64,000 bases of DNA, taken from IMG/VR virus record IMGVR_UViG_3300027849_000009; one strand, 5' to 3'. Of this stretch, positions 17,158-57,379 are shown one piece after another. The position numbers and the translations under genes are program-made. How positions within the stretch are numbered: the first letter of the stretch is position 1; each line of letters begins with the position of its first letter. The notes under the pieces are model-generated. The model was not told where the DNA came from. It made no database searches and worked only from the letters and a program-made list of their open reading frames with translations. The DNA comes from a virus.

Positions 17158-18273
17158 ATGAGTTATGAGTTTACCAGCGAGAGTGTTAGTGAGGGGCATC
17201 CGGACAAGATAGCGGACCTCATCTCTGACAGTATCGCAGATTTTCTTATTGAGAAGAACCCAAACAATCGTGCGGCAATCGAAACCCTAGTGACTAGCAA
17301 TACCGTGGTAGTTGCAGGCGAATATAAAAGTGATACTCCTATGTCGATGAAAACTCGATTTAGAATTGAGGGTATTATTCGTCGTGTTGTGCGCGAGATT
17401 GGGTATGAGCAAGAGAATTTTCATTGGGACACATTAGATGTTGTCAATCTTATCCATGGTCAGAGTCCTGATATTGCTTTAGGCACTGATGACTTTGGTG
17501 CTGGCGATCAGGGTTTGATGTTTGGTTATGCGTGTACCGAGACCGAAGACTTTATGCCGAGTGCGATATATCACAGTCACAAGATACTTCAACTATTGAC
17601 CGAAGAGCGAAAGAGTGGTCGTGCTGAATATCTGGGTCCTGATGCTAAAGCACAGGTGACGATGGAGTACAACGATGATGGCACTCCTCTACGCATTAGT
17701 AAAGTTGTTTGTAGTAGTCAACACACAGAAGATTATCCATTCGATATTATTCGGACGTTCATCACCCAGATTGTCAAGCGGGCAATTACTGGTTACTTCG
17801 ATGAAGATACAGAGTTCTTAATCAATCCGACTGGTAGATTCATCATTGGTGGTCCAGACGGTGATACAGGCGTAACTGGTCGAAAGATCATCGTAGACAC
17901 CTATGGTGGATACGCACCGCACGGAGGTGGAGCGTTTAGCGGTAAAGACTGTACTAAAGTCGATAGAAGTGGCGCATATATGGCGAGATATCTTGCTAAA
18001 AACATTGTTGCCTCAACCTTTGCTGACACTTGTACTGTTCAATTAAGTTATGCGATTGGTGTGAAAGAACCAACAAGTCTACACGTATTTGCTGACGGTA
18101 AGGTTAGAAACGATCTAGCGGCATTGATTCGTGAAAAAGTTGACCTAACACCAAAAGGAATCATTGACAAGTTCGACCTGTTTATGTTACAATTAGAACT
18201 TACTACTAACTATGGTCATTTCGGCAAAGCAGACTTACCATGGGAAAGACTTGATTTAGACTTAGGTGAATAA
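17158..18273 (+). CDS. metK: S-adenosylmethionine synthetase
   Basis: FTSESVSEGHPDK, GAGDQG, GRKIIVDTYGG, GGGAFSGKD. Confidence 0.97.
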   Translation: MSYEFTSESVSEGHPDKIADLISDSIADFLIEKNPNNRAAIETLVTSNTVVVAGEYKSDTPMSMKTRFRIEGIIRRVVREIGYEQENFHWDTLDVVNLIHGQSPDIALGTDDFGAGDQGLMFGYACTETEDFMPSAIYHSHKILQLLTEERKSGRAEYLGPDAKAQVTMEYNDDGTPLRISKVVCSSQHTEDYPFDIIRTFITQIVKRAITGYFDEDTEFLINPTGRFIIGGPDGDTGVTGRKIIVDTYGGYAPHGGGAFSGKDCTKVDRSGAYMARYLAKNIVASTFADTCTVQLSYAIGVKEPTSLHVFADGKVRNDLAALIREKVDLTPKGIIDKFDLFMLQLELTTNYGHFGKADLPWERLDLDLGE

Positions 18274-23982: not shown

Positions 23983-24200
23983 GTGCATTATTAGACGATT
24001 GGGAAAAGAAAGCAGAAGTTCATATTCATGAGTTGAAGAGTTACTTGGATAATGGTGAACTTGCACAAGATGAATATGACGAGTTAGTAAAAGATGTTGT
24101 TGATACATCTACTATTGTCGGACTACTTGATACAGAAAACGATCGGATCATTATGGCGAAGATTGCAGAAGGACTAATGGTTCTTGCAGGTGCGCTATGA
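23979..24200 (+). CDS. Hypothetical protein
   Basis: Coupled ORF. Confidence 0.6.
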   Translation: MSALLDDWEKKAEVHIHELKSYLDNGELAQDEYDELVKDVVDTSTIVGLLDTENDRIIMAKIAEGLMVLAGAL

Positions 24201-24589
24201 TAAGTAAAATACTGTTCGGTGTGATACTGAGTGGTTCTATAGGTTTCTATCTGTTCTATACGTTTGCGCATCTACCATTAGTCACTAAGGTGGAGCAACA
24301 GCAGTTAGTTCTACAGGCACAAGAGTTTCGCCAGCAAGAACAGATTGCTACTATAGACGCACTTCAGAACAATCTAACCAAGACTAGTGAAGCACTAAGC
24401 ACACAGTCGGCACGTAACTCAGAGATTGAGGGTGAGATGTCTCGATACATGAACATCTTTCGTAGACACAACCTAAGTAAATTAGCGGCAGCAAAACCTG
24501 GACTAATTGAACCACGTATTAACAAGGGGACCAAGAATGTATTTGACAGCATCGAAAAAGATTCTGCTTTTATCAGCGATCTTAATTAG
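24197..24589 (+). CDS. Inner-membrane spanin (Rz-like)
   Basis: N-terminal TM, coiled coil, AKPGLIE.RIN; overlaps a lipoprotein gene. Confidence 0.7.
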   Translation: MISKILFGVILSGSIGFYLFYTFAHLPLVTKVEQQQLVLQAQEFRQQEQIATIDALQNNLTKTSEALSTQSARNSEIEGEMSRYMNIFRRHNLSKLAAAKPGLIEPRINKGTKNVFDSIEKDSAFISDLN

Positions 24590-24929
24590 TACAGGTTGTT
24601 CGTTACTTCCTCAAGCACCTAAAGTTATTCCAGTTGAGATTCGTACTATAGAGGTAAAGATACCTATTGTGCATCCTACTCTGCCTCGTGCAATCGATCT
24701 GAAAGAACCATACTTCTATGTGGTATCAGATAAGAACATGGATACGTTTATCGCAGAGATGGAGAAACTAAATGGTACAGTAGTCTTCACTGCAATGACA
24801 ATTGATGACTATGAGTTGATGGCATATAACATGCAGGAAATAAAACGCTACATAGGACAGTTAAAGGAAGTTGTGGTATACTACCGAACTATTAATGACG
24901 AACCCGAAGAGGTCGTAGAGGAAAAATAA
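24537..24929 (+). CDS. Outer-membrane spanin lipoprotein (Rz1-like)
   Basis: Lipobox ISTGC, Pro-rich segment; overlaps the i-spanin 3' end. Confidence 0.7.
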   Translation: MYLTASKKILLLSAILISTGCSLLPQAPKVIPVEIRTIEVKIPIVHPTLPRAIDLKEPYFYVVSDKNMDTFIAEMEKLNGTVVFTAMTIDDYELMAYNMQEIKRYIGQLKEVVVYYRTINDEPEEVVEEK

Positions 24930-25384
24930 TGTACGATTACAAAGTAAAAATCGTGAGAGTGGTCGATGGCGATACAGTGGATGTTGATATTGACTTAGGT
25001 TTTGGTATCTGGATGCTTAAAGAACGTGTACGTATGATGGGCATCGACACACCTGAATCACGTACTCGCGATAAGGTAGAGAAGAAGTTTGGTCTTGCCG
25101 CTAAGAAACATCTCAAAGAAATGTTAGGTAAGACAGCGATTCTTAGGACTCAGATCGATAGGTCCGGAGAAGACAAGAAAGGTAAGTTCGGTCGTATTCT
25201 AGGGGACTTCGATGTTCAAGTTGAACCATCTATCGGTCAGTATGATACAATGAAGAGTGCTTGCCAGATTATGATTGATGACGGTCATGCAGTATCGTAC
25301 TTCGGTGGTAATAAAGAAGAGAATAAAGCAAAGCATTTAGCGAACCGTGAACGCCTGATTGCCGAAGGTGTTGTCGTTCTATAG
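24929..25384 (+). CDS. Thermonuclease (SNase-like)
   Basis: RVVDGDT, RMMGIDTPES, GKFGRILG. Confidence 0.85.
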   Translation: MYDYKVKIVRVVDGDTVDVDIDLGFGIWMLKERVRMMGIDTPESRTRDKVEKKFGLAAKKHLKEMLGKTAILRTQIDRSGEDKKGKFGRILGDFDVQVEPSIGQYDTMKSACQIMIDDGHAVSYFGGNKEENKAKHLANRERLIAEGVVVL

Positions 25385-26515: not shown

Positions 26516-26545
26516 GTTGCAATTACATATTACCTATGTTATAAT
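26516..26545 (+). promoter_or_regulatory. Sigma70-type promoter
   Basis: TTGCAA...TGTTATAAT upstream of a GAGAG SD. Confidence 0.55.
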
Positions 26546-26577: not shown

Positions 26578-27540
26578 ATGAGTCATGAATTAGAGATTGT
26601 AAACGGTAAAGCACAAATGGCATATGCAGGACAAGTTCCTTGGCATGGTCTCGGTACTAAAGTATCTACAGATTTGTCTCCGAGAGAGATGATGGTCGAA
26701 GCGGGATTGGATTGGGGTGTGGAGAAACACTCTGCATTGATCAACGTGCGTGGTGAGTTAATTGAGACGGGTCAGGAAGCACTTATCCGTACAGATACCA
26801 ATGCTGTACTAACTAACGTAGGTAAGAACTGGAATCCTGTTCAGAATAGCGAAGCATTCGATTTCTTTGCTGAGTACTGCGCCGCTGGCGATATGGAGAT
26901 GCACACAGCGGGTTCACTAAAGGATGGGCAAATCACTTGGGTTCTTGCTAAAGTAAATGAGTCATTCGATATCCTTGGTGATGATCAAGTAGATTCGTTC
27001 TTGTTACTATCTAACCCACATCAGTATGGCAAAGCAATCAATGTTCGCTTCACTCCTATTCGTGTAGTATGTAACAACACCTTGACCTTCTCACTTAGTG
27101 CGAACTCAAACAATCAAGTAACTATGAATCACCGTTCTAAGTTTAATCCTGATGAAGTTAAAGCACATATGGGAATTGCTCACGACAAGTTTGCTCAGTA
27201 TAAAGAGATGGCGAATTACTTAGGACACAAGCAAGCATCATTCGGTGATTTGATTAACTACTTTAACAACGTGTTCCCAGTTGCTAATGCTGCCGCTCGT
27301 GAAGCGAAATCATACAGTGATTTGTCTCGTACTGCTAAGATAGCGATGGATCAACTTGACACACAACCGGGTGCTGAGTACGGACGCGGATCATGGTGGC
27401 AAGCACTTAATGCAGTGACTTACACAACCGATCACTTGTTGGGTCGCTCTGCTGATACTCGTATGGCGTCTGCATGGTTCGGATCTAATCAAGCGAAGAA
27501 AGTCAAAGCAGTAAACCTCGCAGTTGAGATGGCATCGTAA
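26578..27540 (+). CDS. DUF932 family protein
   Basis: VPWHGLG, PVQNSEAFDFF, TPIRVVCNNTL, W.A.NAVT. Confidence 0.85.
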   Translation: MSHELEIVNGKAQMAYAGQVPWHGLGTKVSTDLSPREMMVEAGLDWGVEKHSALINVRGELIETGQEALIRTDTNAVLTNVGKNWNPVQNSEAFDFFAEYCAAGDMEMHTAGSLKDGQITWVLAKVNESFDILGDDQVDSFLLLSNPHQYGKAINVRFTPIRVVCNNTLTFSLSANSNNQVTMNHRSKFNPDEVKAHMGIAHDKFAQYKEMANYLGHKQASFGDLINYFNNVFPVANAAAREAKSYSDLSRTAKIAMDQLDTQPGAEYGRGSWWQALNAVTYTTDHLLGRSADTRMASAWFGSNQAKKVKAVNLAVEMAS

Positions 27541-27554
27541 TTAACGCCTGAAAA

Positions 27555-27607
27555 ACGTCTTTAGTATAAATATTATAATGATATTCATGTACTAAAGGCG
27601 TTGTTTT
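27555..27607 (+). promoter_or_regulatory. Late promoter with SD-sequestering hairpin
   Basis: TATAAATA 27565-27572; ACGTCTTTAGTA pairs with TACTAAAGGCGT. Confidence 0.7.
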
Positions 27608-28081
27608 ATGATCGATCCTATATCTGCTGTGGCAGTTGCAACATCCGCATACAAAACAATAACTGCAATGCTTTCTGCTGGACGTGAAGTTGAAGATACT
27701 CTCGGTCAGTTAGGAAAATGGTACGGCGCTATCGCTGACTTCAATGAAGCAAAGCGACAAGCAGAAAATCCCCCTCTATTCAAGAAACTATTCTATTCCT
27801 CAAGTATTGAACAAGAGGCGATGAATATGTTCATTCAAGAACGAAAAATCAAAGCACAAGAAAAAGACCTCCGAGAACTATTGACCTTCTGTTTTCCTGG
27901 TGACGCATACAAAGAATTGACGGATATGCGTAGAAAAATAAGGGATCAGCGAGAGAAAACCCAGTACAAGCAAATTCGCCAGAGACAAGCATTTGTTGCC
28001 AATGCAATCAACTGTATACTGATTGTTGTTTTAAGTGCTTTTACGTATGGTATATTTTCAATGATTATAAATAACATATAG
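27608..28081 (+). CDS. Coiled-coil membrane protein
   Basis: Amphipathic N-terminus, coiled coil, C-terminal TM. Confidence 0.75.
   Translation: MIDPISAVAVATSAYKTITAMLSAGREVEDTLGQLGKWYGAIADFNEAKRQAENPPLFKKLFYSSSIEQEAMNMFIQERKIKAQEKDLRELLTFCFPGDAYKELTDMRRKIRDQREKTQYKQIRQRQAFVANAINCILIVVLSAFTYGIFSMIINNI
28066..28073 (+). promoter_or_regulatory. Late promoter
   Basis: TATAAATA 55 nt upstream of 28129. Confidence 0.55.
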
Positions 28082-28128
28082 ATAAGATAAGATAAACAAT
28101 TGAATTAAATGAATGAAAGGTGGAATAA

Positions 28129-28689
28129 ATGAAACATATAATTTGTGTGATGTTAATGGGAATGCTATGCACCATAGCGAATGCACAAGATGCTCCCATT
28201 GATGATACTATCAGAACAGACTCAGTAACAAACAGTACGGTTGATTCAACATCGAGATCAACTACCACGCTGAACTCTCCTCCTGCTTCTGCAATAACTC
28301 CGACTATCAATACGTCAAACTCTGACTTATGTACGTTCGGTGTTGCGGGTGCAATTCAAACACAGATTCTAGGTATCTCTACTGGCACTCAGGTGACAGA
28401 TGATAACTGTGAACGCCTGAAACTTTCGAAGACTCTGTATGATATGGGTATGAAAGTGGCAGCGGTTTCGACGATGTGTCAAGACGAACGAGTATTCAAC
28501 GCTATGATGATGGCAGGCACTCCGTGTCCCTACGATGGTATGATTGGATCAGAAGCAAAGGCAGCATGGGAAGTTAATGCTGAAGAGAAACCAGATGCTA
28601 AAAAAGAAGAGGAGGGACTGACTGATGGTACTAAGACATTATTGGGCGGCGCTGGCGTTGCTAGTTTGCTCTTGTTACTCCTACTCTAA
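28129..28689 (+). CDS. Exported protein with C-terminal membrane anchor
   Basis: Signal peptide (ANA|QD), 4 Cys in mature part, C-terminal LLLLLL. Confidence 0.75.
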   Translation: MKHIICVMLMGMLCTIANAQDAPIDDTIRTDSVTNSTVDSTSRSTTTLNSPPASAITPTINTSNSDLCTFGVAGAIQTQILGISTGTQVTDDNCERLKLSKTLYDMGMKVAAVSTMCQDERVFNAMMMAGTPCPYDGMIGSEAKAAWEVNAEEKPDAKKEEEGLTDGTKTLLGGAGVASLLLLLLL

Positions 28690-29515
28690 CGATACAGTTT
28701 ATGGTTCTACGTCGAATGCGGCAGCAAATGGTTACAGATGGGTCATGACAAATGTTCTACCTCAACAGTTAGGATTGACTGTTGGTAATGTCATCTATCA
28801 ATACACTACAGTTAAGAATACTGATGACGATATGGTTGTCAGTGTACAGAATGAGAATGCGCGAGGCGAAGGTTATATCTTTAGATCAGTAGATGATTGG
28901 TCAGGAATACCGGGCAATAGTATAAATAAAGTCGTTCCTGCAGGCAACATAGACATATCATACTGGGGGAATGGTTCGATAGATTGGACAGGCACTGGTT
29001 CTGTTACAGATGCGAAAGTGATATACACGTATCAGTACGACCCATGTTTTGATCCGCAGACTGATCCCGCTTGCCCAGGATGGATAGCGCCAGTTAATTA
29101 CAGTATCGAAGACGCCGAAGCATACGATGCTTTATCTGAAGACTATGTTCAGAATGAACTGGATCGAAAGCAGACTCTCCAAGATGAAGAAGAGGAAGAA
29201 GAAGCGGAACGCAAGGCAAACATTCTAAGAAAGAAAAGAGAGAATGACGAACGACTAGAAGTAATGTTGGGATATGTGAATACATCCCTATTATCTGACG
29301 GTCAACTAATTCAGCATGAGATGCTAAAGGCGACAAACAATCTGTCGGGTGCGTATTATGCAACTATATCAGGTGGTAATTATCCAGAGACTATTAAGTT
29401 GATTGATAAGAAACTGCCGGATAGTAAGAGTGGTGTCAGAACCAATCTTGCGCAACAAGTGCTACACCAACAGATGGTCGACTCACAATATAATAATAAT
29501 AACGGAGAACAATAA
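28625..29515 (+). CDS. Exported protein: beta-rich domain plus acidic coiled coil
   Basis: Signal peptide, DPCFDPQTDPACPG hinge. Confidence 0.75.
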   Translation: MVLRHYWAALALLVCSCYSYSNDTVYGSTSNAAANGYRWVMTNVLPQQLGLTVGNVIYQYTTVKNTDDDMVVSVQNENARGEGYIFRSVDDWSGIPGNSINKVVPAGNIDISYWGNGSIDWTGTGSVTDAKVIYTYQYDPCFDPQTDPACPGWIAPVNYSIEDAEAYDALSEDYVQNELDRKQTLQDEEEEEEAERKANILRKKRENDERLEVMLGYVNTSLLSDGQLIQHEMLKATNNLSGAYYATISGGNYPETIKLIDKKLPDSKSGVRTNLAQQVLHQQMVDSQYNNNNGEQ

Positions 29516-30009
29516 TGTTCAAAAAATTAATGTTATCGGTAGCAATTCTGAGTGGCAGTGCAATTGCCCAAGAAGTGCCTATTACTGGCAACGTAGAATC
29601 AAAATGTATAGTACAAACTGATACACTCGGAGTATATGGTAACCCGACTCCTAGTCAACTAACTACATCATCTAATAGTGGCGGAGTAACTCCTATTATT
29701 CGTTTCGATGTGATTCAAGCAAGTTTTTATAAAGCACGAATCACTACACCGAGCGGATTCTCAGAAAGTCCTGCGCTAGATGATGTTGTAACATGGACGG
29801 GTGATGTTGCTGTAGGCGAAGTTTCCGATGCTACTATGTCATCTTATAGCACCAGCAAAGTCGAGTACGATAACACAACTGAAATAGATTTGACAGTTGC
29901 GGGCAGTACTTGGTTTAATATTACATCAACAGCAGACTACGGATATGACACAGCACTTCCTGCTGGCACTTATCGTGCTGTTGTAAGCGCGGAATGTATC
30001 GCTCTGTAA
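29515..30009 (+). CDS. Exported fimbrial/pilin-like protein
   Basis: Signal peptide AIA|QE, ITGNVESKC start, C-terminal AGTYRAVVSAEC. Confidence 0.55.
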   Translation: MFKKLMLSVAILSGSAIAQEVPITGNVESKCIVQTDTLGVYGNPTPSQLTTSSNSGGVTPIIRFDVIQASFYKARITTPSGFSESPALDDVVTWTGDVAVGEVSDATMSSYSTSKVEYDNTTEIDLTVAGSTWFNITSTADYGYDTALPAGTYRAVVSAECIAL

Positions 30010-30383
30010 TGCGTTTTTTTGTAATGCTATTATTGATGACTTTAAGCACCTATGTAATAGGTCATCAATGGACTCCAACTTATCCTACGTTGAAGAACTC
30101 TTATGTATCTGGGGTTCTTTCAACTAGGATGGAGTTGTTCAATGCTAGAAAAGAGGTGTTGTATTATCAGATTGGTGTATTTGATACCGACTTCAAAGCA
30201 GTGCCATTTGCTACCTCAGAAAAGATAATAAAGATTGAACACCTTGACCGAAGGACTGTTGACATTTTTATTAGAAATAGAGATAAAAGTAAAGCAGTAT
30301 ATATTTGTTCTAAGTCTAAGTTGTTAGCAAAGGGATCGGCAACAACCTCTATATCTTCAAGGATATGTTCTAAAATTAAATGA
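30009..30383 (+). CDS. Exported Ig-like, pilus-chaperone-like protein
   Basis: Signal peptide, TP...MELFN...YQIGV pattern similar to a PapD-like N-domain. Confidence 0.45.
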   Translation: MRFFVMLLLMTLSTYVIGHQWTPTYPTLKNSYVSGVLSTRMELFNARKEVLYYQIGVFDTDFKAVPFATSEKIIKIEHLDRRTVDIFIRNRDKSKAVYICSKSKLLAKGSATTSISSRICSKIK

Positions 30384-30393
30384 GTAAATTGTA

Positions 30394-30822
30394 GTGAGAA
30401 AGATTTTTATAATATTGATGTTAGTAAGTACCGGAGCAATAGGTGAATCTAGTTCTTTGAATCTTGCTATACCTCAATCACAACAGAGTTACCAGTCAGA
30501 CAGAATACGTGCAGGGAATATCGAATGTTCTAATGCTATCGGTTCTGCAACTAATGTTGAGTTTGGTGTTGTTGGAATCATTGGAGAGAATGATCCCTAC
30601 GGTTATAATAATAACTCTGGCGCCAGTATGAACACAGGTAGCAATAACGGTATGGTCAAAGATGTCGGTGTGTATGCTAAGATAACGATACCAATCGGTG
30701 GACCAAAAGAAAGAATAAACTGTAATACTTTGTATCAACTAGAACTAGAAAAGACTCGCTTAGAAGTTCGCAAACTGAAAGCAGAAATACAGAGTATGAA
30801 GCAACTAGAATTTGATAACTAA
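30394..30822 (+). CDS. Exported protein: beta-hairpin plus coiled coil
   Basis: Signal peptide, NVEFGVVG / GVYAKITIPIG strands, two Cys, C-terminal heptads. Confidence 0.7.
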   Translation: MRKIFIILMLVSTGAIGESSSLNLAIPQSQQSYQSDRIRAGNIECSNAIGSATNVEFGVVGIIGENDPYGYNNNSGASMNTGSNNGMVKDVGVYAKITIPIGGPKERINCNTLYQLELEKTRLEVRKLKAEIQSMKQLEFDN

Positions 30823-30836
30823 AGGATCAATGTAAC

Positions 30837-31295
30837 ATGGCAGAAGTAGAGTTTGGTGGAGTAACTTTTAGTGGCGGTAAGATGTTTGTCTTACTCTCTG
30901 CACTTTCTACTTTGGGCGGTGCTACATGGGCAGGTTTCGAGTTCTATTCCGACTACATGGATATGAAAGAGATTGTCCAGAACATCGACACTACCGAGAT
31001 AGCAAACCGAAATGCTCAGATCGAGATTAAACTTGACGAAGCAATCGACTATTCACGTAGTATCAAGAACGACCTTCGTGATGACTTCAATCGTATGGAA
31101 GGTAATGTTGACCGTATCGAAGATAAGAATCGTGATATGGAAGATAAAGTAAAGACGATGATTGATCGCGCCAGCGAGAGATTTGACTCAAAGAGAGATA
31201 GTCTTCAGAACGATACCGAGATTAAAATCAACTCTCTTGAAGATCGAATGAATAAGAAGATACAAACTGTTTTAGATAATCCTCTGGCAGATTAA
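30837..31295 (+). CDS. Membrane-anchored coiled-coil protein
   Basis: N-terminal TM then long heptad repeat. Confidence 0.7.
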   Translation: MAEVEFGGVTFSGGKMFVLLSALSTLGGATWAGFEFYSDYMDMKEIVQNIDTTEIANRNAQIEIKLDEAIDYSRSIKNDLRDDFNRMEGNVDRIEDKNRDMEDKVKTMIDRASERFDSKRDSLQNDTEIKINSLEDRMNKKIQTVLDNPLAD

Positions 31296-31299
31296 AGTA

Positions 31300-31587
31300 A
31301 TGCAAGTAACAGATAGAGCAAGAGAGAAACTCCAAAACTTCTTAGAACAACGGAGTAAAGGTTGCGGTGTGTTCGTAACAGTTAAAACAACTGGATGCTC
31401 TGGGTATGCATATCATTTAGAATTTGCAAATGACCAAGATAGTCTTATCGAAGTAGACCCCAAATACAAGTATATGTTCGAAGGAGTCATTCTTGATTAT
31501 GTCAAGCAGGGTCTTAATGAAGGATTCGAATTTGACAATCCTAACGAAAAACACAAATGCGGTTGTGGTGAATCTTTTACCGTATAA
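31300..31587 (+). CDS. iscA: Fe-S cluster assembly protein IscA/HesB
   Basis: GCSGYAY, F.NPN...CGCGESF. Confidence 0.9.
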   Translation: MQVTDRAREKLQNFLEQRSKGCGVFVTVKTTGCSGYAYHLEFANDQDSLIEVDPKYKYMFEGVILDYVKQGLNEGFEFDNPNEKHKCGCGESFTV

Positions 31588-31596
31588 AAATAACAC

Positions 31597-31626
31597 TTGA
31601 CATTCCTTATAAATCCTAGTATAATG
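31597..31626 (+). promoter_or_regulatory. Sigma70-type promoter
   Basis: TTGACA-N17-TATAAT. Confidence 0.65.
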
Positions 31627-31734: not shown

Positions 31735-31810
31735 ATAAATCCTATGAATGATGACTATTCATGAGATAAATGGTAATTAGGTTGACGATGTTGTGATATC
31801 ATGATATAAT
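31735..31810 (+). promoter_or_regulatory. Early promoter, family B copy 3
   Basis: ATAA-N7-GAAT-N7-ATTC-N7-AAAT, 10 nt, TTGACG-N17-TATAAT. Confidence 0.85.
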
Positions 31811-53514: not shown

Positions 53515-55158
53515 ATGAAACCCACTATAGCATTGTATGAGGGTCATGATACTAATCTAACAGTATATGACCCTAATACCGACTCGTTCTACATATATGA
53601 ATTTGAACGTGTTTCAGGTATTAAACACCACAACATAAAAAATCGTACGGGTAGCAATGGTTTATCTACCAGCGCAAATGTTCAATATCTACATATTATT
53701 CTGAATCATCTTAAAGAAGTTCATGGCATTGAAAATGACTTTGGCACATTTATCTTCAAACCCATTTGGTGGAATATATCATACATTGACCGTAGTATTA
53801 TCAATTCAGACAAAGAGATTTTACCAGTCATCGATCACCATGATGCTCATGCATGGTGTGCATATGGACAGGCACCTGAATCGTTCGAGAACACTGCTTG
53901 TATAACTTATGATGGTTGGGGCGAAAACACCGCATTCAAGTACTCGTGTTTCAAAGGCATCAATCGACATTCAGTTGAACCCATGTATTATAATTTCTCG
54001 ATGGTCTACACTGCTATGGCACACTCTCTCAAGATATTACATAATACTATGGATCTTGATCTCCCGGGTAAACTAATGGGATTATCTGCATACGGTGAAG
54101 TGAATCGCACGTGGTCAGATATAATGAAAGATTCTATCAAATCAGACTGGTGGAAATATAAACTAAACAAAGATACAGGATCTAAACCACCTGCCACCTG
54201 GAACGACTCACAAAATCCATTACTTGTGATGAGAAAACAGATCAATCCGTGTATTCAGACAACTGATTATAACATAAAACTAGAGAACACTAAAGCATTC
54301 ATGCTTGCTAGGTCTGCGCAGATTGCATTCGAAGAAGGTATCGTCGAAACTATTAAAGAAGAGTTCCTTGATAAGATTGAAGCGCACGATAACAATCTGA
54401 TAATATCTGGTGGTAGTGCATTAAATGTTCTTGCTAACGAAGCAATCAAACGTGCATTTCCTGATGTCAACATATACATCCCACCAAACTGTCATGATGG
54501 CGGTCTAAGTTTTGGTATGTTATATGAACATCTAAAGACTACTAAGAAATACGATGTCACACAATCTGGTCCAAGAATATTTGATTACAAATATATGGAT
54601 CCGATGATTAAACTATACGGCGCAAAGAAGGTCAGTATTAATGATATTGCAGACTTACTTAAAGAGCAGAAGATAATAGGGATGGTGATTGGTAACATGG
54701 AAGTAGGACCGAGAGCATTAGGCAATCGTTCTATACTATGTGACGCATCTAACCCTAAGATGAAAGACACACTCAATTGTCGTGTTAAGTTCCGAGAGTG
54801 GTTTAGACCGTTCGCTCCTATATGCAGAAAGGAAGATGCACCTAAGTATTTCTACTCACCAAACTTTGATAACATGGAATGTATGCAATTCGTCGCGGAT
54901 GTGTTGCCAGAGTATCAAACTAAACTATTCTCTGTAACACACTACGACAATACTGCCAGACTGCAGGTGGTGACGGAGGAGAGCAATGCCGCAATCTATG
55001 ACATACTGACAGCGTTCGATGGAGTACTAATAAACACTTCCTTGAATGTTCAAGGTAAACCTATTCTAAATACCTTTGATGAAGCATTTCATGTTTTACA
55101 AAAGACTGGTCTAGACCATATAGTGGTAGAGTATGAAAATGATTATTGGTTATTCTAA
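53515..55158 (+). CDS. Carbamoyltransferase (NodU/CmcH/TobZ family) 1
   Basis: GHD, ER..G.KH, HHDAHA, DGWGE, GKLMGLSAYG, GPRALGNRSIL, REWFRPFAP, NTSLN. Confidence 0.9.
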   Translation: MKPTIALYEGHDTNLTVYDPNTDSFYIYEFERVSGIKHHNIKNRTGSNGLSTSANVQYLHIILNHLKEVHGIENDFGTFIFKPIWWNISYIDRSIINSDKEILPVIDHHDAHAWCAYGQAPESFENTACITYDGWGENTAFKYSCFKGINRHSVEPMYYNFSMVYTAMAHSLKILHNTMDLDLPGKLMGLSAYGEVNRTWSDIMKDSIKSDWWKYKLNKDTGSKPPATWNDSQNPLLVMRKQINPCIQTTDYNIKLENTKAFMLARSAQIAFEEGIVETIKEEFLDKIEAHDNNLIISGGSALNVLANEAIKRAFPDVNIYIPPNCHDGGLSFGMLYEHLKTTKKYDVTQSGPRIFDYKYMDPMIKLYGAKKVSINDIADLLKEQKIIGMVIGNMEVGPRALGNRSILCDASNPKMKDTLNCRVKFREWFRPFAPICRKEDAPKYFYSPNFDNMECMQFVADVLPEYQTKLFSVTHYDNTARLQVVTEESNAAIYDILTAFDGVLINTSLNVQGKPILNTFDEAFHVLQKTGLDHIVVEYENDYWLF

Positions 55159-55171
55159 GGAATTATAACAG

Positions 55172-55627
55172 ATGTGGAATATGAATGAAAGTGTATTCGA
55201 ACCCAGCGAAGAGTTTTTAAAAGACTATGTTGGATTTGTGTATCGTATCACTGAGATAGATACAGGTAAGATGTATATAGGAAAGAAGTTCTTCTGGAAA
55301 CCCAAGACACTACCCAAGAACTCTGTACGTAAAAGAAAGATAAAAATGAAAGTACCTTCGGACTGGCAGAAGTATTATGGTTCGAGTGAACATCTATTAG
55401 AGTCAATCAAGAGAACTGGCGTTGATAACTATCACCGTGAAGTTCTAAAGTTATGCACAACTAAAGGCGAATGCTCCTACTATGAAGCAAAGTTACAATT
55501 TGAATACGATGTCCTACTCGACGAACAATACTACAATGCGTTTATCGGTTGCAAAATACACGCAAAGCATTTGCCCAAACCCGCTATCGAAATACGAACA
55601 GCAGAACCTTGGTTCAATAGACCTTAA
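55172..55627 (+). CDS. GIY-YIG family nuclease
   Basis: GFVYRIT...YIGKK, W.KYYGSS, E...YYN. Confidence 0.75.
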   Translation: MWNMNESVFEPSEEFLKDYVGFVYRITEIDTGKMYIGKKFFWKPKTLPKNSVRKRKIKMKVPSDWQKYYGSSEHLLESIKRTGVDNYHREVLKLCTTKGECSYYEAKLQFEYDVLLDEQYYNAFIGCKIHAKHLPKPAIEIRTAEPWFNRP

Positions 55628-55630
55628 ACT

Positions 55631-57379
55631 ATGAGGAATCTAATCGCCGCTAATTGGGGGCATGACGCCTCACTATGTTTCTGGAATGATGTTGCGAAAA
55701 CATTTCATACTATTGAGATAGAAAAACTTGTAGGTATAAAACACTACAGAGGTCACGCACGTAAGGATGAAGAACTAGAGATTCTTAAAAGGTGTGCTAA
55801 GATAGCAGAAGAAGAGTTTGGCATACCCAACGACTATCACTGCATCATTCGTGGCAATCTATTGAACGATATCAAGAAAGAACAGATTGAAAATGGCACG
55901 GGTCGTTTGACAGATAATAAAGTTTCTGATGATATGATGCTCGATGTTGATAACATTAATGCGGCATTTAATACTAAGAATATTGATATCACATATCGAC
56001 ATCATGAAGCACACGCATGGAATGGATTCGCTCCTTCGGGATTTGACAAAGCAGTCATACTTACTATGGATGGTGGTGGTAACGATGGGTTCACTCACTT
56101 GTTCACTGCTGAACATCCTAATAAACCTCTGACAAGTCGTACACGAATACATGGAGTTCAAGCGCATGGCAGAAACTATACTCAGGCATGCCTATGGTCG
56201 TTATACAGTATAATGCAAAGCACCGACTGCTCGTTAGATGTTGCGGGTAAAGCAATGGGTGCATCGTCGTACGGAAACACTGAAAGCGATCCCTACTCGA
56301 CTGCAACGAAACTGTTTTTGAGGACTAACTCCGCTTGGAAAAACTTTAGTCCTGGCAGAATGCTGTACGAGAAACATTACAATCAACCTCTGAAAGACGG
56401 TACTAACAGCAAGATTAAGTTTATCGAAGCATTTAGTACTTCGCCCGAAGTGTACAATCCCTATAAACTATTTATTGATGAGATCGATTGGCAAACAGAA
56501 TGTGATATGGCAAGAGGCATTCAAGATGCGTTTGTTAAAGATGCTATAAAATGGTTCAAAGAGATTATGAGTGTTAGGAACATAAACCTAGATGACTACG
56601 ACAGAAATGTGGTGTTCTCTGGTGGTAGTGCGTTAAATGTACTGTTCAATGATATACTACAGCGAGAGATGAATATCAATCTATTCGTGCCGCCTAATCC
56701 AGCAGACCAAGGAATTCCCTACGGTATGCTCGTGCAATGGATGGTCGATCATGCAACACAATACTCGCGTGAAGAAACTACGTACTCTGGTCAAAAGATA
56801 CAAGACATGGAGGACTTACAGAAATATTATCATTCACACAAAGGCAGAATGACAACTATTGCAGATGTAGCAAGCATACTGAAAGATGATAAGATTGTCG
56901 GACTCGTGCAAGGTGGCATGGAAGTAGGTGCGAGAGCATTAGGCAATCGTTCTATACTTGCTGATCCAAAGGGCGCAGATAAGAAAGACAAAGTTAATGT
57001 AGTAAAGAGACGCGAAGCATACCGTCCGTTCGCGCCAGTATGTAGATTAGAAGATGTAGAGACTTACTTTGACTCAGTTCGTTATGACAATCTATCTTAT
57101 ATGAATTTTGCGATAAAGACTCGTGAGGAACATATAGATAAGTTAAGAGCAGTTACTCATGTTGATGGGACAGCAAGAGTACAGACAGTTACTAAAGAAC
57201 AGAATACAATACTACATGATTTATTAAGTGAATTTGATGGTGTATTATTGAACACTTCTTTCAATGTGAAAGGATCTCCAATACTAAATACACTTAAAGA
57301 AGCGTTCTATATGCTTGACGAAACCACACTCGATCATCTGGTAGTAGTAGATGAACATAACACAATATGGATTTTTTAA
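55631..57379 (+). CDS. Carbamoyltransferase (NodU/CmcH/TobZ family) 2
   Basis: GHDAS, HHEAHA, DGGG, GKAMG, GARALGNRSIL, RPFAP, NTSFN. Confidence 0.9.
   Translation: MRNLIAANWGHDASLCFWNDVAKTFHTIEIEKLVGIKHYRGHARKDEELEILKRCAKIAEEEFGIPNDYHCIIRGNLLNDIKKEQIENGTGRLTDNKVSDDMMLDVDNINAAFNTKNIDITYRHHEAHAWNGFAPSGFDKAVILTMDGGGNDGFTHLFTAEHPNKPLTSRTRIHGVQAHGRNYTQACLWSLYSIMQSTDCSLDVAGKAMGASSYGNTESDPYSTATKLFLRTNSAWKNFSPGRMLYEKHYNQPLKDGTNSKIKFIEAFSTSPEVYNPYKLFIDEIDWQTECDMARGIQDAFVKDAIKWFKEIMSVRNINLDDYDRNVVFSGGSALNVLFNDILQREMNINLFVPPNPADQGIPYGMLVQWMVDHATQYSREETTYSGQKIQDMEDLQKYYHSHKGRMTTIADVASILKDDKIVGLVQGGMEVGARALGNRSILADPKGADKKDKVNVVKRREAYRPFAPVCRLEDVETYFDSVRYDNLSYMNFAIKTREEHIDKLRAVTHVDGTARVQTVTKEQNTILHDLLSEFDGVLLNTSFNVKGSPILNTLKEAFYMLDETTLDHLVVVDEHNTIWIF

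Follow-up and report, generated by a model that had tools for sequence, protein, structure and literature searches.

What do the small exported proteins encoded between positions 27608 and 31295 of a marine phage genome fragment do in the infected cell? The fragment, IMG/VR record IMGVR_UViG_3300027849_000009, was analysed over its whole 64 kb (the window), and an earlier sequence-only reading of it had proposed that seven genes in this region, here called p1 to p7, form a late operon encoding a pilus-like structure on the cell surface. All seven open reading frames (ORFs) were found where that reading had placed them, tightly packed on the + strand. We found that six of them, p2 to p7 (28129-31295), make up a conserved cassette. 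To the reading that their products would form one envelope module, in which p4 and p5 would interact by beta-strand complementation without an usher and which would act at the end of infection, we give a probability of roughly one half. The genes are as follows (aa, amino acids; Ig, immunoglobulin; MSP names a domain type):

p1, 27608..28081, + strand, 157 aa: coiled-coil-rich, C-terminal hydrophobic tail; variable neighbour outside the conserved block
p2, 28129..28689, + strand, 186 aa: signal peptide, Ser/Thr-rich linker, 4-Cys core, acidic linker, C-terminal hydrophobic anchor
p3, 28625..29515, + strand, 296 aa: signal peptide, conserved N-terminal domain with C-x8-C loop, acidic linker, C-terminal MVDSQY
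p4, 29515..30009, + strand, 164 aa: signal peptide, unstructured N-terminal extension, predicted Ig-like beta-sandwich
p5, 29994..30383, + strand, 129 aa (mature, about 106 aa): signal peptide and a single predicted PapD-like (MSP-type) Ig domain
p6, 30394..30822, + strand, 142 aa: signal peptide, two hydrophobic stretches around a variable loop, heptad-like C-terminal stretch
p7, 30837..31295, + strand, 152 aa: hydrophobic segment near the N-terminus, then a coiled-coil-like region ending in an invariant D-N-P-L-A-D

Because of its gene content and its polymerase identities, the window is assigned by sequence to an uncultured marine T4-like phage. Its long ORFs all lie on the + strand and include a T4-type DNA polymerase, a DnaB-like helicase, a ribonucleotide reductase and a nucleotide-sugar epimerase; the polymerase is 56% identical to that of 'Phage C48C1' (itself unassigned) and 48% identical to those of cyanomyophages.

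Six genes that stay together

Related loci were drawn from 11 IMG/VR contigs with p4, three contigs found by exact-protein look-up, two distant relatives and one contig of a metagenome-assembled genome (MAG). The six genes p2 to p7 were complete in all 13 of the loci that span the block, 12 of them in the same order and one rearranged, so that the co-occurrence expected of a functional block holds even where the order has changed. In the rearranged locus (L017) the order is p2-p3-p7-p4-p5-p6, and identity to the window ranges over 25-57% across the six proteins (p2 ∼55%, p7 49%, p6 49%, p5 34%, p4 27% and p3 25%). By these identities p2, p6 and p7 are the slow members of the cassette and p3, p4 and p5 the fast ones. 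The flanking genes vary from locus to locus and the block sits among accessory genes. The seven-gene operon of the earlier proposal is thereby reduced to a co-inherited block of six, as p1 (27608) comes and goes. Because homologues of p1 occur in only three related loci, upstream of the block in one, downstream in another and inverted in the third, its sequence relatives mark it as a frequent neighbour of the cassette and not a member.

Spacing within the block is tight. A 47-nt gap separates p1 from p2; p2 and p3 overlap by 65 nt, p3 and p4 by 1 nt and p4 and p5 by 16 nt, and gaps of 10 nt and 14 nt separate p5 from p6 and p6 from p7. The p2/p3 overlap is retained in relatives. Over these 65 nt (28625-28689) the same DNA encodes the C-terminal membrane anchor of p2 in one frame and the signal peptide of p3 in the other.

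An N- or C-terminal hydrophobic segment or signal peptide in every gene, as had been claimed, was confirmed by hydropathy; export signals were judged throughout by a hydropathy script, not by SignalP. The N-terminal hydrophobic cores (h-regions) of p2 to p6 score 2.2-2.9, compared with 0.1-1.2 for most flanking genes, the one flanking exception being the epimerase (1.97). The hydrophobic segment of p7 starts at about residue 17 and is read as an N-terminal membrane anchor, and p1 and p2 carry C-terminal hydrophobic tails (residues 127-157 in p1). Past their signal peptides p2 to p6 contain 4, 2, 2, 2 and 2 Cys residues, respectively, and such even counts are as expected for disulfide-bonded periplasmic proteins, which these sequences would then encode. 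These features fit the description of p2 as a Cys-paired protein with a C-terminal anchor: four Cys follow its signal peptide and a hydrophobic tail ends the chain. No conserved lipobox or lipobox Cys was present in the p2 to p6 alignments. We also considered whether the products could be virion proteins; this was rejected because of the export or anchor signals on all six and the position of the block away from the capsid and tail genes of related contigs.

Searches of Pfam, NCBIfam and PDB sequences gave no match for any of the six cassette members and no usable one for p1, and matches in PHROGs were only to families without an assigned function (p2 to phrog_20531, E 2e-14; the neighbour p1 weakly to phrog_32327, E 2e-5). 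For p3 there was no Pfam, PDB-sequence or phage-database match, for p6 no family or PDB-sequence match, and no relatives of p3 or p4 were found in 50,697 deposited phage genomes. Cassette families are nevertheless abundant in public metagenomes. The p4 family comprises 553 metagenomic clusters, all of ∼165 aa, the p5 family 1,174 clusters (111-137 aa in the 120 listed), and the p2-core family at least 7,096 clusters, with no Pfam domain among the matches listed for any of the three; some members of the p2, p4 and p5 families lie on contigs of 100-200 kb. A p4 profile run against 1.84 billion representatives returned 105 matches, mostly fragments, all within its own narrow family and none of them bacterial pilins. 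Two strict p5 patterns, which distant bacterial versions could escape, were run against 185,579 species genomes and gave a single match, a 4.3-kb MAG contig with complete p2 to p7. This contig (L028, CALBDR010000414.1, 4313 bp) is binned as 'Candidatus Melainabacteria' and is probably a misbinned phage contig. Literature searches turned up no published description of such a phage module.

Predicted folds of p5 and p4

The sequence-only reading had described p4 as a protein with fimbrial hallmarks and p5 as an adjacent Ig- or chaperone-like protein. An AlphaFold2 model of p5, built from a 30-sequence alignment, is a seven-strand sandwich (predicted local distance difference test score, pLDDT, 86.8). 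The p5 signal peptide (h-region score 2.81) is probably cleaved just before His24, which is invariant. The top Foldseek matches of the model are pilus chaperones (SfaE, PapD, SafB, FimC, Caf1M, FaeE and CsuC, E 2e-4 to 1e-3), with MSP/VAP domains mixed in among them. A Foldseek-independent search of 48,161 chains, with a stated tool background of Z 7-8, gave 29 chains at Z ≥8, nearly all of them PapD-like, including YadV (10.1), FimC (10.0), SafB (9.9), CfaA (9.6) and PapD (8.9) as well as FaeE, CupB2, CsuC and EcpB. Compared with chaperone domain 1, p5 gave VIA Z 8-10.7 over 89-105 residues, with the matched chaperone regions running from residue 1 to ∼114-141. Residues 22-129, the whole mature protein, align to chaperone residues 1 to ∼114-129 and thereby cover domain 1 as far as its G1 strand.

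Sequence comparison was made by hhalign against an alignment of nine chaperones built from E. coli and plasmid records. P was 3e-4 with signal peptides and 0.011 without them; the score of 19.5 compares with a maximum of 16.8 in 30 column shuffles, 16.4 for the reversed profile and 9-13 for the other cassette proteins, and the strand register is sensible and agrees with the structural alignment. The nearest named language-model cluster of p5 is the PapD_N chaperone cluster (0.84), which is a lead only. No match to the PF00345 (PapD_N) profile was found for p5 or 30 family members at E up to 10. Conserved Arg8 and Lys112 of PapD-family chaperones anchor the subunit C-terminus. The p5 chain ends with an invariant K129 and a nearly invariant K127, within an invariant C-terminal C-S-K-I-K, and these lie at about the place of Lys112 as judged from the aligned ranges, not from a residue-level alignment. 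The predicted mature N-terminus of p5 is the invariant His in H-[EQ]-[LW]-x-P-T-Y-P, which is reminiscent of the His that begins copper-binding Ig-like proteins of the periplasm, e.g. CopC or YcnI.

A PapD-like fold is thus supported for p5 by the model, and descent from pilus chaperones is plausible. However, PapD-family chaperones consist of two Ig-like domains meeting at a right angle (PMC2500206), and p5 is not a member of that family as defined, because it has no second domain, no hidden Markov model (HMM) match and no conservation at the Arg8 position. The earlier chaperone-like description therefore stands for the fold and the match to domain 1, and fails for the second domain and the family profile. 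The fold is shared with MSP/VAP/ASH domains, which are likewise single-domain, score Z 9.1-9.7 against p5 and bind peptides along a beta-sheet edge; these are cytoplasmic and eukaryotic, whereas p5 is predicted to be exported and disulfide-bonded and is encoded in a phage operon.

For p4, an AlphaFold2 model from 37 sequences (pLDDT 91.1) folds residues 31-164 into an Ig-like sandwich that includes one helix. It leaves residues 19-30 as coil, yet they are among the best conserved (I23, G25, V27, S29, K30 and, next to them, C31). They carry the motif V-x-I-x-G-x-V-x-S-K-C (V21-I23-G25-V27-S29-C31), whose pattern of hydrophobic-x-hydrophobic-x-Gly-x-hydrophobic followed by Cys persists in relatives at 22-27% identity and is similar to that of the donor strands in FimA, FimG, MrkA and a Paraburkholderia pilin. 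A subunit of a chaperone-usher pilus has an Ig fold without its C-terminal strand, which leaves a groove, and such subunits are defined in part by an N-terminal extension that is unstructured and in which hydrophobic residues alternate (PMC2500206). At the other end of p4, a C-terminal P-A-G-x-Y-x-A-x-V strand parallels the T-x-G-x-h-x-A...Y-Q ending of pilins (h, hydrophobic). In p4 this strand reads P-A-G-T-Y...C, and Cys31 and Cys161, the only two Cys, are invariant. Foldseek gave CfaB (E 4.7e-3), the PapG pilin domain, CsuA/B and FimG among weak matches from E 4.7e-3 upward, and archaeal donor-strand fibres (CanA) scored Z 5.7-6.0. A language-model lead, and a lead only, went to the SCPU cluster (spore coat U, the Csu-type pilin domain; 0.94). 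Neither p4 nor 36 relatives matched the pilin profiles (Fimbrial PF00419, SCPU PF05229), hhalign against nine type 1 pilins was not significant (P 0.42), and no clear p4 match came from a search of BFVD. The fimbrial hallmarks of the earlier reading are therefore borne out for the N- and C-terminal motifs, not for the fold, whose matches are generically Ig-like, nor for the disulfide, which is unlike that of pilins. Of the structural comparison that had been suggested as a check, p5 matched PapD, and p4 matched CfaB and CsuA/B only weakly.

The cassette thus resembles the chaperone-usher pathway (FimC-FimA, PapD-PapK, Caf1M-Caf1, CfaA-CfaB and the archaic CsuC-CsuA/B) in having a Sec-exported PapD-like Ig domain encoded beside an Ig-like subunit. 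In this subunit the extension alternates hydrophobic residues around a Gly, the first strand opens with a Cys and the C-terminal strand follows the pattern G-x-Y/h-x-A-x-h. The cassette differs in that there is no usher, in that p5 has one domain and not two and ends at about the G1 strand, in the lack of HMM matches, in the p4 disulfide, in p2, p3, p6 and p7, which are without counterpart, and in being encoded by lytic phages.

Several results count against a chaperone-subunit relationship between p5 and p4. For p5, the MSP/ASH domains score at the same level as the chaperones, an unrelated glycosidase Ig domain ties with them (Z 10.6), and a Z of ∼10 is only modestly over the tool background. 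The hhalign probability falls to 4% for the mature parts with signal peptides removed, domain 2 is absent, as all ∼106 mature residues align to domain 1, and the residue near the Arg8 position varies. For p4, the best Z scores (7.0-7.6) are to MSCRAMM and integrin Ig-like domains, which are complete Ig-like folds, with pilins lower (PapG pilin domain 5.4, AggA 5.2), and all p4 Z scores (≤7.6) are at the tool background level. Its disulfide joins the first and last strands, while pilins bridge strands A and B (the second Cys of the fetched pilins lies ∼40 residues past the first, compared with Cys31/Cys161 in p4). Pfam, NCBIfam and PDB-sequence searches with every p4 and p5 alignment member were also empty.

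These scores bear on a rival explanation, i.e. that there is no common machine and the cassette encodes exported accessory proteins with separate jobs, the pilus likeness of p4 and p5 being chance convergence of Ig folds. The near-background fold scores of p4, the modest ones of p5, the lack of sequence homology to any family and the occurrence of p2 alone in other phages would all fit this. Against it, the six genes stay together over 25-57% identity and a change of order, their overlapping starts and stops are conserved, and two adjacent proteins, p4 and p5, independently lead to the two partners of one pathway. We consider separate jobs very unlikely.

Lysis, appendage and the question of an usher

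Across the cassette loci the 4-Cys core of p2 (∼residues 48-150) hardly varies. Cultured Pelagibacter phages, both podoviruses and the myovirus Mosig, encode proteins that share 52-61% identity with it, and the roseophage proteins share 33-38%. The p2-like proteins of pelagiphages and roseophages share the signal peptide and the Ser/Thr-rich linker. Six other marine phages were examined, and in four of them the p2-like gene precedes an endolysin gene by one to three genes:

CRP-810: lysozyme
CRP-207: putative lysozyme
HTVC023P: peptidase M15
ctXG6705: lysozyme

In CRP-207 (L031) 38 nt are shared between the p2-like gene and the gene that follows, comparable to the p2/p3 overlap in the window. 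Small proteins with the layout of p7, in which an N-terminal anchor in the membrane leads into G-G-F and a coiled coil and the chain ends in N-P-L-[AG], are encoded two or three genes past the p2-like gene in three pelagiphages:

L029:5044-5403 (HTVC023P), p7-layout gene
L030:4782-5123 (HTVC202P), p7-layout gene
L016:3915-4313 (Mosig), p7-layout gene

The HTVC023P gene immediately precedes the M15 peptidase gene. On their sequence features these may be lysis proteins of SAR11 phages that have so far gone unrecognised; no spanin, annotated or profile-matched, was seen in the pelagiphage neighbourhoods examined. The position of p2 and p7 relatives beside endolysin genes points to the envelope at lysis, not to an appendage. 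The surface structure of the sequence-only reading is unsupported.

In these pelagiphages the gene next after the p2-like gene encodes a large protein (432-611 aa) with a hydrophobic N-terminus:

L029:3514-4899, large secreted-protein gene
L030:3487-4785, large secreted-protein gene
L016:2080-3915, large secreted-protein gene

The C-terminal stretch of these proteins resembles the end of p6 by eye, with a profile match that is not significant. Homology of p3 or p6 to them was considered and dropped on the same ground.

Spanins (lambda Rz/Rz1, T4 PseT.3/PseT.2) offer the closest lysis comparison. Like an i-spanin, p7 has an N-terminal anchor and a coiled-coil-like remainder, the cassette combines predicted inner-membrane-anchored and soluble periplasmic parts, and p7 relatives lie beside pelagiphage endolysin genes. 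Unlike two-component spanins, the cassette has no lipobox lipoprotein partner, and p6 and p7 gave no spanin HMM match. The phage encodes an Rz-like spanin pair elsewhere, as overlapping ORFs of 130 and 140 aa (24197-24929; phrog_739 and phrog_812, E ∼1e-12), and the cassette lies 2.7 kb downstream of it. On account of that pair and of the lack of a lipobox, p6/p7 was rejected as the spanin of this phage. We also considered the p2 C-terminus as a GlyGly-CTERM sorting signal, which was rejected as there is no NCBIfam match and no basic tail.

A role in lysis has to be set against other results. The p2-like gene is not beside an annotated lysin in HTVC202P or Mosig; the likeness of p7 to the pelagiphage proteins consists of layout and a short motif, with hmmsearch E of 3e-4 to 0.02 in a 16-sequence set; and, since a canonical spanin pair is already present, any lysis role of the cassette would be an additional one.

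Under the reading that we favour, p2 to p7 would be placed in the envelope of an infected Gram-negative cell, all six crossing the inner membrane by Sec. The N-terminal helix of p7 and the C-terminal tail of p2 would hold these two proteins in that membrane, with the rest of each on the periplasmic side, and p3, p4, p5 and p6 would be soluble or outer-membrane-associated proteins carrying disulfides. In this scheme p5 would correspond to domain 1, the subunit-binding part, of a pilus chaperone, and p4 would be an Ig-like subunit with a pilin-type extension. The two would interact by beta-strand complementation, tethered to the inner membrane. In the periplasm p4 could by this means be retained, capped or linked into chains, with no usher needed. 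Because a p2/p7-type module usually lies just upstream of an endolysin gene, we place the action of the assembly at the end of infection, where it may take part in envelope breakdown or its timing and would not be an exported pilus. Proteins of the p2 and p7 types would form an older and far more widespread marine-phage pair, usually just upstream of the endolysin, which in T4-like phages would have been joined by a one-domain PapD-like protein, a pilin-ended subunit and two further exported proteins. A stronger version of this scheme, in which the cassette is self-sufficient and assembles a donor-strand fibre or lattice within the envelope without an usher, using a one-domain chaperone, the p2/p7 anchors and possibly an oligomer of p6 for late reshaping or opening of the envelope, we regard as improbable.

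The alternative of a true surface fibre turns on export. In the known pathway an outer-membrane usher of ∼800 residues, encoded with the chaperone, is needed to polymerise and export the subunits (PMC2500206). We found no usher in the block or in related loci, and none was matched by PHROGs or Pfam scans of the ten largest non-overlapping ORFs of the window, which are the polymerase, helicase, ribonucleotide reductase, carbamoyltransferases, S-adenosylmethionine synthetase, a DUF6267 protein or unmatched; the earlier remark that no usher-sized gene is present agrees with this for the block. Nor was there a secretin or CsgG-like match among the cassette proteins or these ten ORFs. On this alternative a p4 donor-strand polymer would leave the cell by way of a host usher or of a purely conjectural pore of p6 oligomers, to serve in adhesion, aggregation or the blocking of other phages, as the sequence-only reading had proposed. 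The p6 protein has a conserved N-terminal motif, and its two conserved hydrophobic stretches surround a variable Gly/Asn-rich loop (between Cys45 and Cys110) and are followed by the heptad-like C-terminal stretch, which would suit a pore. The pilin-like N-terminal extension and C-terminal strand of p4 and the PapD-like p5 adjoining it would also suit a fibre, as would the fast evolution of p4, p3 and p5 (27, 25 and 34% in L017 compared with 49-57% for p2, p6 and p7), which would be expected of exposed parts. With no usher, secretin or CsgG-like match in these scans, and since late expression would give an appendage little time to matter, we think a surface fibre doubtful.

The cassette might instead exclude superinfecting phages or mask receptors, with a complex that blocks DNA entry or covers receptors and spares progeny from binding to debris. 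T4 Imm and Sp and the T5 lipoprotein Llp are systems of this kind, and like them the cassette is phage-encoded, predicted to be exported to the host envelope and non-virion. By hydropathy all its products would be periplasmic or membrane-bound, the variable p3, p4 and p5 could track variable parts of the host surface, and the accessory genes around the block differ between loci. The known systems are, however, one or two small proteins with known targets and made early, unlike a six-protein block; the cassette has no sequence or fold link to them. Exclusion or masking is in our view unlikely, if somewhat less so than an exported fibre.

If the chaperone-subunit reading is true, phages have taken beta-strand complementation from pilus assembly and use it without an usher, which bears on the evolution of the fold and on late phage action on the host envelope. 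A donor-strand fibre or lattice would represent a further class of envelope assembly pathway. If the link to lysis is true, it would help to explain how abundant marine phages, e.g. pelagiphages, open their hosts.

Promoter motifs and neighbouring genes

The cassette had been described as a late operon on the strength of two T4-type late-promoter-like motifs, both of which are exact:

27565..27572, + strand: TATAAATA, exact match, ∼36 nt before p1
28066..28073, + strand: TATAAATA, second copy, exact match, ∼56 nt before p2

The window contains eight copies of TATAAATA, all on the + strand, and 9 of 100 shuffles also reach eight. Among 12 related loci checked, an exact copy lies within 120 nt upstream of p2 in one (L003). 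Because the shuffles reach the same count and the motif is kept upstream of p2 in one locus of 12, late expression of the cassette from these motifs is plausible and no firmer than that. A third copy at 28921-28928, inside p3 and ∼590 nt before p4, may mark a late start inside the block or have arisen by chance. The region is bounded by strong sigma-70-like promoters at 26517 and 31597. After an iron-sulphur (Fe-S) assembly gene (31300-31587) there is a perfect TTGACA-17-TATAAT promoter-like site at 31597-31625 and an 11/12 site at 31782-31810, which we read as the start of the next early-type gene units.

Elsewhere in the window, a staphylococcal-nuclease-like gene (24929-25384) directly follows the spanin pair. 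The phage also encodes a complete S-adenosylmethionine synthetase (17158-18273), two tandem Nol-like carbamoyltransferases (53515-57379) and a DUF932 protein (26578-27540), the gene for which lies now before and now after the cassette in related contigs.

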